7,045 nt of DNA from the IMG/VR virus record IMGVR_UViG_2547132277_000003, one strand, 5' to 3'. This DNA is from a virus (Duplodnaviria; Heunggongvirae; Uroviricota; Caudoviricetes). Of this stretch, positions 1,989 to 7,045 are shown one piece after another. Both the position numbers and the translations under genes were made by a program. The notes beneath the pieces were generated by a model. It did not search any database and was not told the DNA's origin. It worked only from the letters and a program-made list of their open reading frames with translations. Position 1 is the first letter of the stretch, and each line of letters starts with the position of its first letter.

Positions 1989-2681
1989 TTAATTATGTCT
2001 CTTAAGGGTTTGCGACTGACTGATTAAGACCTTTCCAAAGACCATGAATCGGTGTTCGTTTTCGCTAGTAATTCCCCATTCACGGTAAATCTGGTTATCA
2101 GAAATCACCAGCAGTTTGTCAGGAATCATTTGAAGTCTTTTAACGTATATTTTGTCATCAAAACCAAAGACATATATACCATCACCATCAAACTGATTGA
2201 TGCTGACATCAACGAAGATGAGATCTCCGGGCTCAATGGTTGGACACATACTGTCCCCACGAACGTTGATAACTTTGATGTGATTGGCTGGTCGTCCGCC
2301 GAACATTGATACAGCATTATCAGTTCTGTATTCGATGGCATGAATCACATCAATGACATCACCGCCCTGGATAAGGCCATTTCCCGCACTGGCACTGATA
2401 TCCAGCATTTCAATACGGAACACATCCTTCACCTGCGCAACATCCTCATTATTACTGTTTTTATATACAGTATTACTTTTGTGGGCAGAGGTAAAGAGAT
2501 CAGCAATATCAACACCTAAGCTCTTGGCAATATTACTCAGTGTTTGTTCGGTAAATTGTTTTTGCTTACCCGTTTCTAAGCGCGAGATGTTCGCCGCATC
2601 TACTCCTATCGCTTCAGCGAGATCGGCGATTTTCATGTTCTTCGCTTGGCGAAGTTGTCTGACTCGGTTTCCTATGTTCAT
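1989..2681 (-). CDS. CI-type prophage repressor (N-terminal XRE-family HTH + C-terminal S24 LexA-like autopeptidase)
   Basis: 230 aa. N-terminus IGNRVRQLRQAKNMKIADLAEAIGVDAANISRLETGKQ is a classic HTH. The C-terminus carries the S24 signature GDSMCPTIEPGDLIFVD (Ser nucleophile) and IYVKRLQ (general-base Lys), with an Ala-Gly candidate cleavage site in DISASAGNG. The start has no Shine-Dalgarno and sits 6 nt after a -10-like hexamer. Confidence 0.9.
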   Translation of the reverse strand: MNIGNRVRQLRQAKNMKIADLAEAIGVDAANISRLETGKQKQFTEQTLSNIAKSLGVDIADLFTSAHKSNTVYKNSNNEDVAQVKDVFRIEMLDISASAGNGLIQGGDVIDVIHAIEYRTDNAVSMFGGRPANHIKVINVRGDSMCPTIEPGDLIFVDVSINQFDGDGIYVFGFDDKIYVKRLQMIPDKLLVISDNQIYREWGITSENEHRFMVFGKVLISQSQTLKRHN

Positions 2682-2778: not shown

Positions 2779-3039
2779 ATGCAATCACCATTACGAAATG
2801 TGCGTAAGGCGCATGGTTTCACTTTGCAGCATGTTGCTGCGGGTGTTCAAGTCAATCCAGCGACGTTGAGTCGTATTGAGAGGCTGGAGCAGATTCCATC
2901 TATCGAGCTTGCAGAACGTTTAGCCAATTTTTTTAAGGGTGAAGTCAGCGAAATGCAGATTCTTTATCCGGCACGTTTTCAATCTAGCCAAAACCAGAAT
3001 GGGTTTAAACCACAGGAACAGGAGGTGAACCGTGGGTAA
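2779..3039 (+). CDS. Cro-like HTH transcriptional regulator (XRE family)
   Basis: 86 aa, divergent from the repressor, strong SD GGAGGG 3 nt... upstream of the ATG at 2779 (2771-2776). HTH segment GFTLQHVAAGVQVNPATLSRIERLEQ. Its 3' end overlaps the next gene by 8 bp. Confidence 0.8.
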   Translation: MQSPLRNVRKAHGFTLQHVAAGVQVNPATLSRIERLEQIPSIELAERLANFFKGEVSEMQILYPARFQSSQNQNGFKPQEQEVNRG

Positions 3040-3583
3040 GCATCACTGGAAAGTAGAAAAACAGCCTGAGTGGTACGTGAAAGCTGTCAGAAAAACTATC
3101 GCAGCGTTGCCGGGGGGGTACGCTGAAGCTGCTGACTGGCTGGATGTAACAGAGAACGCATTATTTAACCGCCTTCGTGCCGATGGCGATCAGATTTTCC
3201 CGCTGGGATGGGCAATGATTTTGCAACGTGCTGGTGGAACTCACTTCATTGCTGACGCTGTGGCGCAGTCTGCAAATGGCGTCTTTGTGTCTCTTCCTGA
3301 TGTCGAGGATGTGGACAACGCCGATATCAACCAACGCCTGCTGGAGGTCATTGAACAGATCGGCAGTTATTCAAAACAGATTCGTTCAGCAATCGAAGAC
3401 GGTGTAGTGGAACCGCATGAGAAAACTGCAATTAACGACGAGCTATATCTCTCAATTTCGAAGCTGCAGGAGCATGCAGCACTGGTCTACAAAATCTTTT
3501 GCATTTCAGAAAGTAATGACGCCCGCGAGTGTGCAGCTCCGGGCGCCGTGGCGTGTCGTGACTGTGGAGAAACTAACGCATGA
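3032..3583 (+). CDS. phage CII-like regulatory protein (CP76-type, ~183 aa)
   Basis: GTG start at 3032 preceded by AGGAGGT (3019-3025). Position immediately after cro and its size fit the enterobacterial prophage CII-like (CP76) family. The family call is from memory of that family and is not verified; the C-terminus has a Cys cluster [13 protein letters not shown]. Confidence 0.65.
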
Positions 3584-3918
3584 ACAGTTTAACAACACAC
3601 TACCGTCGCTCGCAACTGATTGCGCTTCCTGTACCGGGTGGAAAAGCGAAGGTGGAGTATTGCTATGCAGTAAATGTACCAGGTGACAGGGAAATTGTAA
3701 CCCACAGCTTTGCAGAGTGGGCTGTGGGTGATTTCAACCGGCAGAAGGAGACAGTCCTTTGCGACAAGTTAACCGCTGGTTCAAAGATCACTACGGAGTG
3801 CCCGTCAGAGTCATTCGTTGGGAACCGGAAACACAACGGGTTATCTACCTCCGCGAAGGCTATGAGCATGAGTGCTTCAGTCCGCTCGAACAGTTTCGTC
3901 GTAAATTCAGGGAAATAG
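3580..3918 (+). CDS. hypothetical protein (112 aa); frame is uncertain in its 3' half
   Basis: ATG at 3580 overlaps the CII-like stop (ATGA) and has GGAG 9-10 nt upstream. The N-terminal ~57 codons look protein-like, but the 3' half ([48 protein letters not shown]) is Ser/Thr-rich and reads like an out-of-frame translation. Confidence 0.3.
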
Positions 3919-3938
3919 AGGTCGGTCATGAGCACTAA
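3759..3938 (+). CDS. hypothetical small protein (59 aa, TTG start), alternative frame to the 3' half of 3580-3918
   Basis: Manual translation in the third frame: (M)[58 protein letters not shown]. Balanced, aromatic- and charge-rich composition. A perfect SD AAGGAG (3745-3750) lies 8 nt before TTG at 3759. Missed by the ORF track, probably because of its short length. Confidence 0.35.
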
Positions 3939-4869
3939 ATTAACCGGCTATGTATGGGATGGTTGCGCAGCGTCAGGCATGAAATTATCCAGCGTGGCAA
4001 TTATGGCCCGCCTGGCTGATTTCAGTAATGACGAAGGTGTGTGCTGGCCATCAATTGAAACCATTGCCCGTCAGATTGGCGCGGGGATGAGTACCGTCAG
4101 AACGGCTATCGCACGGCTGGAAGCAGAAGGCTGGTTAACGCGTAAGGCGCGTCGCCAGGGTAACCGCAATGCGTCGAATGTTTATCAGCTTAACGTTGCG
4201 AAGCTTCAGGCAGCGGCATTTTCTCAACTGTCAGATTCTGACCCGTCAAAATCTGACGCATCAAAATCTGACCCGTCAAAATTTGATGCGTCGAAATCTG
4301 GCAAAAAAGCGGGTTTTCACCCGTCAGAATCTGGCGGGGATCCGTCAGTAAAATCAAAACATGATCCGTCAGATAAAAAAACTTCTCGTCCGGACGCTTC
4401 GCAACCGGACACGCAGACGGCTGAACAGGAGTTTTTAACTCGCCATCCTGATGCGGTTGTATTCAGCCCTAAAAAGCGCCAGTGGGGAACGCAGGATGAT
4501 TTGACCTGCGCACAGTGGCTCTGGAAAAAAATCATCGCCCTGTACGAGCAGGCCGCCGAATGTGACGGCGAGGTGGTTCGTCCCAAAGAACCGAACTGGA
4601 CAGCCTGGGCAAACGAAATTCGCCTGATGTGTGTGCAGGATGGTCGTACTCATAAACAAATCTGCGAGATGTACAGCCGCGTCAGTCGCGATCCGTTCTG
4701 GTGCCGTAACGTGCTCAGCCCGTCGAAGCTGCGGGAAAAATGGGATGAGCTTTCCCTGCGCTTATCGCCGTCCGTCAGCACGTACACCGAAAAACGCGAA
4801 GACCCGTACTTCAAAGCCAGTTACGACAACGTGGACTACAGCCAGATCCCGGCAGGATTCAGGGGGTGA
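3928..4869 (+). CDS. phage replication initiation protein, O-like (N-terminal winged-HTH domain, iteron-encoded linker, C-terminal domain)
   Basis: 313 aa, SD GAGGT (3918-3922) 5 nt before the ATG. N-terminus VWDGCAASGMKLSSVAIMARLADFSNDEGVCWPSIETIARQIGAGMSTVRTAIARLEAEGWL resembles the HTH of prophage replication initiators. The central low-complexity linker (SDSDPSKSDASKSDPSKFDASKS...) is encoded by tandem DNA repeats, as in lambda O where the origin lies inside the gene. Confidence 0.8.
   Translation: MSTKLTGYVWDGCAASGMKLSSVAIMARLADFSNDEGVCWPSIETIARQIGAGMSTVRTAIARLEAEGWLTRKARRQGNRNASNVYQLNVAKLQAAAFSQLSDSDPSKSDASKSDPSKFDASKSGKKAGFHPSESGGDPSVKSKHDPSDKKTSRPDASQPDTQTAEQEFLTRHPDAVVFSPKKRQWGTQDDLTCAQWLWKKIIALYEQAAECDGEVVRPKEPNWTAWANEIRLMCVQDGRTHKQICEMYSRVSRDPFWCRNVLSPSKLREKWDELSLRLSPSVSTYTEKREDPYFKASYDNVDYSQIPAGFRG
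4228..4380. repeat. iteron-like tandem repeats (putative phage replication origin) inside the O-like gene
   Basis: Five contiguous 15-bp units at 4228-4302 (cTGTCAGATTCTGAC, CCGTCAAAATCTGAC, GCATCAAAATCTGAC, CCGTCAAAATTTGAT, GCGTCGAAATCTGGC), then further CCGTCAG-initiated copies at 4321, 4342 and 4366. Each unit has internal dyad symmetry (GTCAGA / TCTGAC). A moderately A-rich stretch (4343-4381) follows. Confidence 0.6.
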
Positions 4870-4871
4870 GC

Positions 4872-5360
4872 ATGAGTCTTTTGAATGACGTTCAGAAATT
4901 CATTGAAGCCCATCCGGGCTGTACTTCCGGAGATATTGCGGATGCTTTTGCCGGTTACTCACGGCAGCGCGTTCTGCAGTCAGCAAGCAAGTTACGTCAG
5001 AGTGGGCGTGTGGCTCACCGTTGTGAAGGAGATACACGCAGACATTTCCCGCGCCTGACTGAGAGAGCGCAGGAACCGGAACCACAACCAGTTCGTGAAA
5101 CCAGACCTGTGCGCAATTTCTATGTCGGCACTAACGATCCCCGTGTGATTTTGTGCCTGACCCGCCAGGCGGAAGAACTGGAGTCCAGGGGCTTATACCG
5201 TCGTGCTGCAACCGTGTGGATGGCGGCATTCCGTGAAAGCCACTCCCAGCCAGAACGAAACAATTTTCTGACGCGTCGTGAGCGGTGCTTACGGAAAAGC
5301 AGCAAGCGCGCTGCATCGGGTGAAGAGTGGTATCTGTCAGGGAATTACGTGGGGGCTTAA
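4872..5360 (+). CDS. PerC-family (Pch-like) transcriptional regulator with an N-terminal winged-helix-like extension
   Basis: ATG at 4872 preceded by AGGGGG (4861-4866); an alternative GTG at 4866 overlaps the upstream stop. The C-terminal half contains ...AEELESRGLYRRAATVWMAAF...RRERCLRK..., matching the signature I associate with PerC/Pch activators. Family call is from memory and not verified. Confidence 0.55.
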   Translation: MSLLNDVQKFIEAHPGCTSGDIADAFAGYSRQRVLQSASKLRQSGRVAHRCEGDTRRHFPRLTERAQEPEPQPVRETRPVRNFYVGTNDPRVILCLTRQAEELESRGLYRRAATVWMAAFRESHSQPERNNFLTRRERCLRKSSKRAASGEEWYLSGNYVGA

Positions 5361-6013
5361 TGAGTAATAAATATTGCCAGGCGCTGGTGGAACTGCGGAA
5401 CAAACCAGCCCATGAACTGAAGGAAGTGGGCGATCAGTGGCGCACGCCGGACAACATTTTCTGGGGAATTAACACCCTGTTTGGCCCGTTTGTTCTGGAT
5501 CTGTTCACTGACGGTGATAACGCCAAATGTGCCGCGTATTACACGGCGGAAGACAACGCGCTGGCGCATGACTGGTCAGAACGTCTTGCGGAGCTTAAAG
5601 GTGCTGCCTTTGGTAATCCCCCATACAGCCGCGCCAGTCAGCATGAGGGGCAATACATCACCGGCATGCGTTACATCATGAAACATGCCAGTGCCATGCG
5701 TGATAAGGGCGGGCGCTATGTTTTCCTGATCAAAGCTGCCACCAGCGAAGTGTGGTGGCCGGAAGATGCAGATCATATTGCTTTTATTCGCGGGCGTATT
5801 GGTTTTGAACTGCCTGTCTGGTTTATCCCGAAAGACGAGAAGCAGGTACCGACAGGAGCTTTTTTCGCTGGTGCTATTGCTGTTTTTGACAAGACCTGGA
5901 AGGGACCGGCAATCAGCTACATCGGGCGCGATGAACTTGAGGCATGTGGTGAGGCGTTTCTGGCGCAGGTTCGCCAGCAGGCGGAAAAACTGGTCAGGGA
6001 GATGGCGGCATGA
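5360..6013 (+). CDS. phage-type DNA N6-adenine methyltransferase (Dam family), orphan with no adjacent restriction gene
   Basis: Catalytic motif IV AAFGNPPYSR is present, with upstream DQWRTPDNIF and VLDLFTDGDNAKCAAYYTAEDNAL typical of phage Dam-type enzymes. Start chosen at ATG 5360 (TAATG overlap with the upstream stop); an in-frame GTG at 5327 is an alternative. Confidence 0.85.
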   Translation: MSNKYCQALVELRNKPAHELKEVGDQWRTPDNIFWGINTLFGPFVLDLFTDGDNAKCAAYYTAEDNALAHDWSERLAELKGAAFGNPPYSRASQHEGQYITGMRYIMKHASAMRDKGGRYVFLIKAATSEVWWPEDADHIAFIRGRIGFELPVWFIPKDEKQVPTGAFFAGAIAVFDKTWKGPAISYIGRDELEACGEAFLAQVRQQAEKLVREMAA

Positions 6014-6336
6014 CGACGTTAACTCAATGCCAGCAGCAGGTGCTGGATATGCTGATTTCTTATCAGAAAGAACGTGGCTTCCCGCCAACCAATCAGGAGG
6101 TGGCAACCATGCTGGGATACCGTTCGGTGAATGCAGCGGTGGAGCATCTTCGCGCACTGGAGAAAAAAGGCGTCATCACGATAAAGCGTGGCGTGGCCCG
6201 GGGGATAACGCTTCATACCGCGGTGAAGGACGACGACAGCGAGGCGGTCGGGATTATCCGCGCACTGCTTGCCGGTGAGGAAAACGCAAGGCTGCGTGCA
6301 ACCCACTGGTTACATGAGAGGGACCTGAAAGTATGA
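6010..6336 (+). CDS. LexA-like DNA-binding-domain-only protein (winged HTH, no S24 peptidase domain)
   Basis: 108 aa. LTQCQQQVLDMLISYQKERGFPPTNQEVATMLGYRSVNAAVEHLRALEKKGVITIKRGVARGITL parallels the LexA N-terminal domain (LTARQQEVFDLI...[36 protein letters not shown]...) but the protein ends about 35 residues later with no Ser/Lys dyad. ATGA overlap with the Dam stop. Confidence 0.75.
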   Translation: MTTLTQCQQQVLDMLISYQKERGFPPTNQEVATMLGYRSVNAAVEHLRALEKKGVITIKRGVARGITLHTAVKDDDSEAVGIIRALLAGEENARLRATHWLHERDLKV

Positions 6337-6614
6337 AGCTGATCCTGCCTTTTCCGCCCAGCGTGAACACGTACTGGCGACACCCCAACAAAGGGGCGTT
6401 TGCTGGTAAGAGCCTGATAAGCGCGGCGGGGCGAAAATTCCAGAGCGCGGCGTGCGCAGCAATAGTTGAGCAGTTACGTCGTCTGCCGAAACCAACGTCG
6501 GCACCTGCTTCAGTGGAGATCGTGTTGTTTCCTCCGGATAGACGGGATGGAAAACCGCCGCCATCGCCTGAACTGGGAAATGAGCCGGGACAGGTGTTTG
6601 CGGCTTGGCAGTAA
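6333..6614 (+). pseudogene. rusA: RusA-family Holliday-junction resolvase, C-terminally disrupted (catalytic Asp region missing)
   Basis: N-terminus MKLILPFPPSVNTYWRHPNKG matches the RusA signature (E. coli RusA LPWPPSNNRYYRHNRG). Similarity continues through ...VEIVLFPPDRR, but the expected RRDLDN...K...D catalytic segment is replaced by DGKPPPSPELGNEPGQVFAAWQ-stop. No alternative frame in 6538-6660 restores it. ATGA overlap with the upstream gene. Confidence 0.55.
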
Positions 6615-6650
6615 CCGGCTCATTTAAACCGTCTGGTCTGTTTCCTCCGG
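6526..6650. repeat. 12-bp exact direct repeat TGTTTCCTCCGG (6526-6537 and 6639-6650) flanking ~101 bp at the rusA breakpoint
   Basis: Seen directly in the sequence. The first copy lies within rusA codons just before homology is lost; the second lies 44 bp upstream of the right-hand transposase start. Confidence 0.6.
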
Positions 6651-6693
6651 CTCTACAAAAATAATGTCCATCATTTTTAATGGACACTATCGT

Positions 6694-7045
6694 ATGAAAC
6701 ACCGGACCTGGATCACTGAAGCTTTACGTCTTCACTTTGAAGAACATTTACCCCGGGTTGTGGCCGGGCGTCGCCTGGGTGTACCAAAATCAACAGTTTG
6801 TAGTATGTTCGTGCGCTTTCGGAGAGCTGGCCTTTCGTGGCCTTTGCCCGCAGGCATGTCGGAGCAGGAACTTGATGCCTGCCTTTACGGACAATTTTCC
6901 ACGATACCAGTCGTACGTCCTGAAAGCACCGTTATATCCGAAGCCCCCGTGGTAAAAAAACGTCCCCGGCGGCCCAACTTCCCTTATGAGTTTAAAATCG
7001 CCTTAGTGGAGCAGTCACTGCAGCCCGGAGCCTGTGTGGCGCAGA
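6694..7045 (+). CDS. IS transposase, N-terminal part with two HTH regions (family uncertain, IS3-family OrfA-like; partial, runs off window end)
   Basis: Manual translation from ATG 6694: MKHRTWITEALRLHFEEHLPRVVAGRRLGVPKSTVCSMFVRFRRAGLSWPLPAGMSEQELDACLYGQFSTIPVVRPESTVISEAPVVKKRPRRPNFPYEFKIALVEQSLQPGACVAQ..., no stop before the window end. The second HTH resembles IS2-type OrfA ([25 protein letters not shown]). It differs from the left-hand IstA, so the two flanking elements are different. Confidence 0.6.
   Translation, partial: MKHRTWITEALRLHFEEHLPRVVAGRRLGVPKSTVCSMFVRFRRAGLSWPLPAGMSEQELDACLYGQFSTIPVVRPESTVISEAPVVKKRPRRPNFPYEFKIALVEQSLQPGACVAQ

Follow-up and report, generated by a model that had tools for sequence, protein, structure and literature searches.

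The 7,045-nucleotide stretch of Caudoviricetes DNA considered here (IMG/VR record IMGVR_UViG_2547132277_000003; in the following, the window) raises the question of what a phage does with a LexA-type DNA-binding domain that has no protease domain attached. The protein concerned, 108 amino acids (aa) in length and in the following referred to as LexA-like, is encoded by an open reading frame (ORF) that is real and whose coordinates an earlier sequence-only reading had given exactly (Table 1). The gene is a phage-borne derivative of gammaproteobacterial LexA: it is real, conserved, LexA-derived, and without an S24 domain. Its best explanation, put forward tentatively and on the basis of sequence, is that it encodes a dimeric, RecA-insensitive repressor of LexA-type operators that would be made after prophage induction. 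We arrive at this explanation because the residues that read CTGT are kept, the C-terminal domain (CTD) of LexA is absent, and an amphipathic helical tail is conserved.

The assignment of the N-terminal part to the LexA winged helix-turn-helix (wHTH), already made in the sequence-only reading, is borne out by profile, sequence and structure comparisons. Residues 1–65 match positions 1–65 of the 65 positions of the Pfam profile LexA_DNA_bind (PF01726, E = 2.9e-19, 69 bits with a cutoff of 23.7). The best matches of a PDB sequence search are E. coli LexA and its isolated N-terminal domain (NTD; 1LEA, E = 6e-16, residues 2–70), and BLASTP against E. coli LexA yields 43% identity over 90 aa (E = 1e-21). 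An AlphaFold model (predicted local distance difference test, pLDDT, 83.9), obtained with an alignment of 21 family members, consists in its N-terminal part of three helices (residues 6–22, 28–35 and 40–52) and a two-stranded wing (56–58 and 66–68), and superposes on DNA-bound LexA (3JSO_B) with a root-mean-square deviation (rmsd) of 1.0 Å over 68 columns at 50% identity. In E. coli LexA, the CTGT motif is read mainly by S39, N41, A42 and E45, according to a published summary of the LexA-DNA structure (PMC11442139). All four residues are present in the window protein (R38-S-V-N-A-A-V-E45).

The chain stops after residue 108, and a Pfam search of it yields no match to Peptidase_S24 (PF00717); the earlier conclusion that the protein should not be self-cleavable through RecA is supported. 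The NCBIfam lexA equivalog (TIGR00498) is aligned at model positions 1–91 of 203 only, with 70.6 bits and thus under its cutoff of 110.95. Since the S24 domain is a defining feature, the protein is not LexA by membership; its RefSeq name is 'LexA family transcriptional regulator' (WP_000210155.1). The pair A88-G89 aligns with A84-G85 of LexA (VAAGE vs LLAGE); it lies within a predicted helix, is not kept across the family, and the catalytic domain is absent from the protein. The suggestion that the protein may act as an uncleavable occupant of LexA-type sites is plausible, given that all four CTGT-reading residues are retained. Membership in a defence system was also considered and rejected: the sole PADLOC match is a sub-threshold CARF3 (E = 3.6e-4, residues 3–60), which we take as noise.

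The protein had been described as consisting only of a DNA-binding domain, which is inexact, as residues 75–108 constitute a conserved two-helix tail. Residues E78, L86, L87, A93, A97 and L101 of the tail are conserved in the family alignment, and the tail is retained by relatives at 38–50% identity (P0123, P0126, P0129, P0132, P0139, P0164, P0172, P0218 and P0248). The ratio of non-synonymous to synonymous polymorphism (pN/pS) of the tail is 0.235 over 52 alleles, and the mean pLDDT of the residue block 71–80 is 62. A comparison of the tail fold with the PDB by Foldseek gave weak whole-chain likeness only (E > 0.01, rmsd 8–10 Å) and is not usable; the weak matches are wHTH regulators with helical C-termini, namely MntR, MepR and a BlaI-like protein. 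The tail is a candidate dimerisation or partner-binding module, and probably substitutes for the missing dimerisation domain of LexA.

The LexA-like protein matches PHROG 362 over its full length (1–108 vs 1–106 of 106, E = 3.8e-59) and shares 100% identity with its counterpart in the isolated phage vB_EcoS-569R4. Genes with 96–100% identity comprise SfV orf42, SfII gp44, mEp460 gp46 ('LexA DNA binding domain protein') and the 569R4 copy, as well as genes in phage cdtI and in Stx2a, Stx2c and Stx2k phages. The gene is found in 61 phage records and in 2232 of 5426 complete E. coli genomes, with up to four copies. Tailed full-length members occur only in Enterobacterales (Shigella, Citrobacter, Salmonella, Hafnia, Buttiauxella, Enterobacter and Klebsiella), as judged from a scan of genome contigs with a family alignment. 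The family is under purifying selection, with a pN/pS of 0.10 overall and 0.024 in the wHTH over the same 52 alleles. It is annotated by homology only (PHROG 362, SfV orf42, mEp460 gp46, RefSeq 'LexA family protein'), and a literature search returned no experimental study of this family or of any enterobacterial phage protein limited to the LexA NTD; only gp6 of phage GIL01 and its relatives turned up. We note that other stand-alone LexA-NTD architectures exist (P0130, P0131, P0148, P0150 and a protein of Edwardsiella phage EPP-1), some with two LexA_DNA_bind stretches in tandem, one of only 71 aa and without a tail. The variety suggests that there have been repeated independent ways to dispense with the S24 dimeriser.

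How such a protein would act can be considered in the light of what is known about LexA. The CTD of LexA holds the determinants of dimerisation, of self-cleavage, and of the contact with activated RecA (RecA*), and dimerisation-defective LexA cannot bind its sites (PMC3159453). In the operator complex, the two NTDs of LexA also form an extensive interface, which cooperates with DNA binding (PMC3159453). Because this interface cooperates with DNA binding and dimerisation is required, an NTD combined with a substitute dimeriser would make a workable repressor. For the LexA-like protein we infer dimerisation, SOS-box binding, a repressive sign, and the timing of expression as follows. The protein would dimerise through its tail together with NTD-NTD contacts as LexA makes them on DNA, and the dimer would bind LexA-type operators (CTGT-N8-ACAG). 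Without cleavage machinery or a RecA-binding domain, it would remain bound while host LexA is destroyed, such that repression would be re-imposed on host and phage SOS-box promoters during lytic development.

With respect to timing, the gene order places the LexA-like gene among the delayed-early (nin) genes of the PR operon of lambdoid phages of the SfII/SfV/mEp460 type, between the replication genes and Q. A promoter scan revealed nothing promoter-like directly 5' of the gene. The dam promoter annotated in SfV (TTGCGC/TACGGA) was considered as a route to expression in the lysogen and discarded, as it is weak and altered in the window. The ATG of the LexA-like gene overlaps the stop codon of dam and its own stop codon overlaps the ATG of rusA, in both cases by 4 nucleotides (ATGA), and the gene is translationally coupled to dam and rusA. 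Given the position in the operon, the protein is expected only after inactivation of the prophage repressor upon induction, or after infection, and no expression is expected in a quiescent lysogen.

A more far-reaching version of the proposal, in which a RecA-proof LexA surrogate, present in the lambdoid prophages of about 40% of E. coli genomes, dimerises through its own tail and re-occupies SOS boxes after induction, and the phage thereby takes over the damage response until the lytic cycle ends, appears doubtful to us. The host targets shut by such a surrogate would be sulA, umuDC, SOS-induced toxins, colicins, and LexA-controlled antirepressors of rival prophages; the SOS-box genes of the phage itself would be shut as well, including the box in its repressor gene.

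The latter box also corrects the sequence-only reading, which had reported no canonical CTGT-N8-ACAG box in the window. A perfect box lies within the gene of the cI-like repressor (Table 1), and its sequence, TACTGTATATAAAAACAGTA, is letter for letter that of the E. coli umuD and sbmC SOS boxes (PMC3009722, Table 4). Six repressor lineages (SfII, mEp460, ST64B, Klebsiella phage 1 LV-2017, phage Eeyore, and Cronobacter phage ENT47670), with protein identities as low as 50%, have a box at these codons, each scoring at least 22 bits. The spacers differ among the six boxes, and the linker around them diverges, with an indel. The six cI genes share 28 four-fold degenerate columns with invariant amino acid, and the third base is identical in all six at only two of these, T71 (ACT) and V72 (GTA), which make up the CTGT half-site. 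Likewise, of seven invariant serine columns only S76 (AGT), in the ACAG half-site, has an identical codon in all six genes. Since the only fully conserved synonymous sites of the whole gene are the three within the box, selection acts here at the level of the DNA. Repressors related in the C-terminal domain alone (BTP1, HK022, KPC2phi6.1) do not have the box, nor do those of the e14/SfV type, and a literature search found no paper that prints these phage box sequences.

The box in cI is a candidate operator, most simply of host LexA, and the LexA-like protein may use it as well. Host LexA is the more likely of the two, because the box also occurs in related phages without a LexA-like gene; several box-bearing phages, for example ST64B, do not have one. 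The box may act as a LexA roadblock on transcription of the repressor gene, or as part of a weak sense promoter under LexA control. A putative promoter of this kind, TTTACC-N17-TACTGT, with conserved and indel-free spacing, may give rise to a C-terminal repressor fragment upon SOS induction.

Boxes elsewhere in these phages were scored with a matrix made from about 29 E. coli boxes, of which the entries for umuD, recN, dinI, dinD, lexA, yebG, ruvA, uvrD and sulA match the table in PMC3009722. In phages that carry the LexA-like gene, strong SOS boxes are located within cI, 5' of a KilA-N/Ant-like gene, at an orf48-like methylase gene and at dinI-like genes; boxes of this kind would be natural targets of the LexA-like protein, and their sequences include TACTGTAAAAATAAACAGTG and CACTGTTCATAAATACAGTA. 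In 11 of 80 related loci the strong box TACTGTATTTATGAACAGTG is intergenic, about 50 nucleotides after rusA and about 100 nucleotides 5' of the KilA-N/Ant-like gene. The KilA-N/Ant-like gene, right beside the LexA-like/rusA pair, resembles an antirepressor-type gene under LexA control. Of the recurrent boxes, those at the orf48-like 'DNA methylase' gene 3' of Q lie in its first codons, and those at dinI-like genes are in tandem 5' of the gene.

The density of boxes is 49.5 per Mb in 80 loci with the LexA-like gene (L019–L098; 0.46 per Mb in shuffled sequences) compared to 0.7 per Mb, about the level of the shuffles, in 80 loci of HK75/HK97 type (L107–L186). Strong boxes around the nin region are thus approximately 70 times denser in phages of the SfII/SfV/mEp460/ST64B type than in those of the HK75/HK97 type. 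The contrast reflects how lineages of lambdoid phages differ in their wiring to host LexA. An association of box density with the LexA-like gene was considered and rejected, as the contrast between 49.5 and 0.7 per Mb disappears in a control within one backbone: the boxes mark a phage lineage wired to host LexA, not the LexA-like gene. A search for an operator of its own, which scanned CTGT-Nn-ACAG and ACAG-Nn-CTGT with n = 0–20 in loci with and without the gene, singled out N8 alone and gave no candidate non-SOS palindrome; outliers at spacings N19 and N14 are GC-rich, lie inside conserved coding sequence, and were dismissed.

Several points weigh against a repressor of LexA-type operators. 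In the control just mentioned, which uses the ST64B-type RusA backbone, the density of boxes is 25.6 per Mb with the LexA-like gene and 28.2 per Mb without it. As loci with the gene are no richer in boxes than those without it in one backbone, the phage boxes give the proposal no specific support. The position of E44 in LexA is never Glu in the family (Val in the window protein), and A42 and E45 vary in distant members; therefore the binding specificity may have drifted. Dimerisation through the tail is a guess, with a predicted template modelling score (pTM) of 0.57 for the monomer model. The only characterised truncated LexA of a phage, GIL01 gp6, uses a different palindrome and is an activator. 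Finally, a role in SOS shut-off leaves the near-absolute linkage to rusA, described below, unexplained.

Some of these points would fit an alternative in which the protein is a phage-specific transcription factor with an operator of its own, possibly an activator of later genes, and has no role at host SOS boxes, an explanation that we regard as unlikely. The precedent is gp6 of the Bacillus tectivirus GIL01, a truncated LexA homologue of 66 aa that evolved a distinct site, the palindrome GaCACAnnTGTGaC, and activates the late promoter P3 (PMC6182141). The systematic lack of Glu at position 44, the variation at positions 42 and 45 in distant members, and the lack of a relation between box density and the gene within one backbone are in line with such re-targeting, as is the location of the gene between the replication genes and Q, a frequent place of timing regulators. 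However, all four CTGT readers are intact in the E. coli lineage, the repeat scan over spacings 0–20 gave nothing convincing beyond N8, and the window protein has no sequence similarity to gp6 (BLASTP gives no alignment at E ≤ 100).

The genomic neighbourhood suggests a possible partner. Across two IMG/VR samples, each of the 104 family genes is followed by rusA in the same orientation, directly adjoining in 102 of them and with one intervening gene in the other two. A rusA gene is also found 3' of the LexA-like gene in SfII, SfV, mEp460, cdtI, 2H10 (without dam) and mEp390 (47% identity), and the linkage holds at five loci of distant homologues, two of which are beside a very divergent type of RusA. 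In SfIV, the rusA gene 3' of the LexA-like gene (L347, ~1824–2215) has an in-frame stop (…SAAG*KFQ…) and is unannotated in the record. The 5' neighbour is variable across lineages (Dam, a Dcm-like methylase, a replication protein, or a hypothetical protein). RusA, on the other hand, is found in 409 phage records compared to 61 for the LexA-like gene, and 58 of 80 loci with ST64B-type RusA are without the LexA-like gene. The dependence is one-way: the LexA-like gene is tied to rusA, rusA is not tied to the LexA-like gene. We also note a conserved ORF of 67 aa (MKKxWF…PPRIDRTY) 3' of the LexA-like gene in one sub-lineage. It is located between the LexA-like gene and a divergent RusA at L012 (6405–6608), and is likewise present, without any RusA, in Klebsiella phage ST846-OXA48phi9.1 (L348, 966–1169).

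It is conceivable, if rather improbable, that the protein is an accessory of RusA, with the wHTH on DNA and the tail in contact with RusA such that junction resolution is targeted or restrained, or that the gene mainly couples translation of rusA. The presence of rusA downstream in all 104 cases and also beside distant homologues, together with the variable upstream neighbour, argues for such a role, and a tail of this size, with two helices only, requires a partner that covers its hydrophobic face. Against it, RusA functions independently of the LexA-like gene, as evident from the 409 vs 61 records and the 58 of 80 loci without the gene, and in Klebsiella phage ST846-OXA48phi9.1 the LexA-like gene is present although rusA is missing. 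The conserved residues of the tail are the same beside two barely similar types of RusA, and tight linkage is also expected from the 4-nucleotide overlaps in a mosaic genome. We know of no resolvase that needs such a partner.

That the gene is a functionless, decaying fragment of a captured lexA in a dead prophage is very improbable and for the family largely refuted: the prophage is indeed defective and the alignment to LexA runs through the region of the cleavage site, as from a truncation origin, but the reading frame is unbroken and a viable phage has one that is 100% identical, pN/pS is 0.10 over 52 alleles, the architecture is kept at 38–50% identity in several genera, and the match to the PHROG has an E-value of 3.8e-59.

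With respect to the prophage itself, the window matches, at 100% identity, a defective SfII-like lambdoid prophage beside tRNA-Thr and proA in enterotoxigenic E. coli O6:H16 and other strains. An element of the IS66 insertion sequence (IS) family truncates rusA, with tnpA, tnpB and tnpC annotated in NZ_CP024232 (locus L001, 13007–15953). An IS21 element lies on the left (window position 1 to ~1200), and the late genes are absent. Since the prophage is defective in these respects, with immunity and early genes intact, the LexA-like gene is an intact passenger at this locus. Beyond the window, 3' of the IS66-family element (L001, 15976–21659), an integrase fragment and a 4.4-kb AVAST type 2 (Avs2) anti-phage gene are found in place of the late region. 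A search with Rfam returned no RNA families in the window.

Table 1. Coordinates of features in the window and of SOS boxes at related loci.
Feature	Position	Strand	Remark
cI-like prophage repressor (HTH_3 + Peptidase_S24)	1989..2681	-	controls the PR operon that holds the LexA-like gene
canonical 20-nucleotide SOS (LexA) box TACTGTATATAAAAACAGTA	2453..2472	-	perfect CTGT-N8-ACAG; in cI-like linker codons N-T-V-Y-K-N-S
cro-like	2779-3039	+	early rightward operon (2779..5360)
cII/YmfL-like	3032-3583	+	early rightward operon
DUF4222	3759-3938	+	early rightward operon
replication O-like	3928-4869	+	early rightward operon
PerC/YfdN-like	4866-5360	+	early rightward operon
dam, phage N6-adenine methyltransferase	5360..6013	+	upstream neighbour in the window lineage
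LexA-like gene	6010..6336 (with stop codon)	+	108 aa; ORF call
LexA-type wHTH	6010..6213	+	codons 1-68; Pfam, AlphaFold (AF2), superposition on 3JSO_B, pN/pS 0.024
recognition helix	6127-6165	+	residues 40-52 of the LexA-like protein
wing	R64-G65-I66 of the LexA-like protein		
acidic linker HTAVKD	6214..6231	+	codons 69-74; low confidence; length varies across the family alignment
two-helix tail	6232..6333	+	codons 75-108; predicted helix-turn-helix hairpin (helices 75-88 and 93-103)
rusA remnant (Holliday-junction resolvase)	6333..6545	+	truncated after about codon 70 by the IS66-family insertion
IS66-family element, left end	6546..7045	+	tnpA from ~6664, runs off the window
box TACTGTATTTATGAACAGTG	L046 10765-10784		also at L029, L055, L064, L071, L072, L082, L083, L088, L098 and SfIV (L347)
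orf48-like/dinI-like boxes, SfV (L006)	34170-34189		
orf48-like/dinI-like boxes, mEp460 (L003)	29516, 11750, 11778		
orf48-like/dinI-like boxes, cdtI (L007)	44083, 26720, 26748		

Truncated LexA proteins of phages are already known; new here is a phage-encoded truncated LexA with a conserved tail, intact readers of the E. coli type and a fixed linkage to rusA. If binding to SOS boxes holds true, a prophage gene as common as this one would act as a built-in brake on the SOS response that is insensitive to damage, also in Stx2-, Cdt- and serotype-converting phages, with a bearing on mutagenesis, on the induction of prophages and toxins by antibiotics, and on the competition of co-resident prophages. 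The protein would then be the first Gram-negative counterpart of GIL01 gp6. If instead it has its own site or is a partner of RusA, it would be an ordinary phage regulator or accessory, of local interest only.

Among known systems, E. coli LexA (1LEA, 3JSO) shares with the window protein the fold, 50% identity over 68 aligned residues, the CTGT readers, and R64-G65 of the wing. Unlike LexA, the window protein has no S24 domain and hence lacks the Ser119/Lys156 active site, the dimer interface of the CTD and the surface for RecA*; it has a helical tail of 34 aa after the hinge, Val in place of E44, and a location in a phage early operon instead of the chromosomal lexA locus. The fragment 1–84 released by autocleavage of LexA comprises nearly the same segment, with the alignment reaching the region of Ala84-Gly85. 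This N-terminal fragment has lowered affinity for DNA and is degraded by ClpXP and Lon (PMC3159453), whereas the phage protein, about 20 residues longer and with a further conserved helix, is a stable gene product under selection. The protein of Edwardsiella phage EPP-1 (L349, 1495–1710) is likewise a phage LexA NTD, with a recognition helix nearly identical to that of LexA (RSPNAAEDHLKAL) and in a nin-type region; in contrast to the window protein it is tail-less, has only 71 aa, and is not directly upstream of rusA, and it probably goes back to a separate truncation event. GIL01 gp6, finally, is the only characterised analogue, a LexA DNA-binding domain of a temperate phage without the catalytic domain and encoded in an early operon (for the window protein, by operon position). 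As there is no detectable sequence similarity, the two are independent captures from different LexA lineages: gp6 is a tail-less activator with a changed operator, whereas the window protein is tailed, retains readers of the E. coli type, and is linked to rusA.

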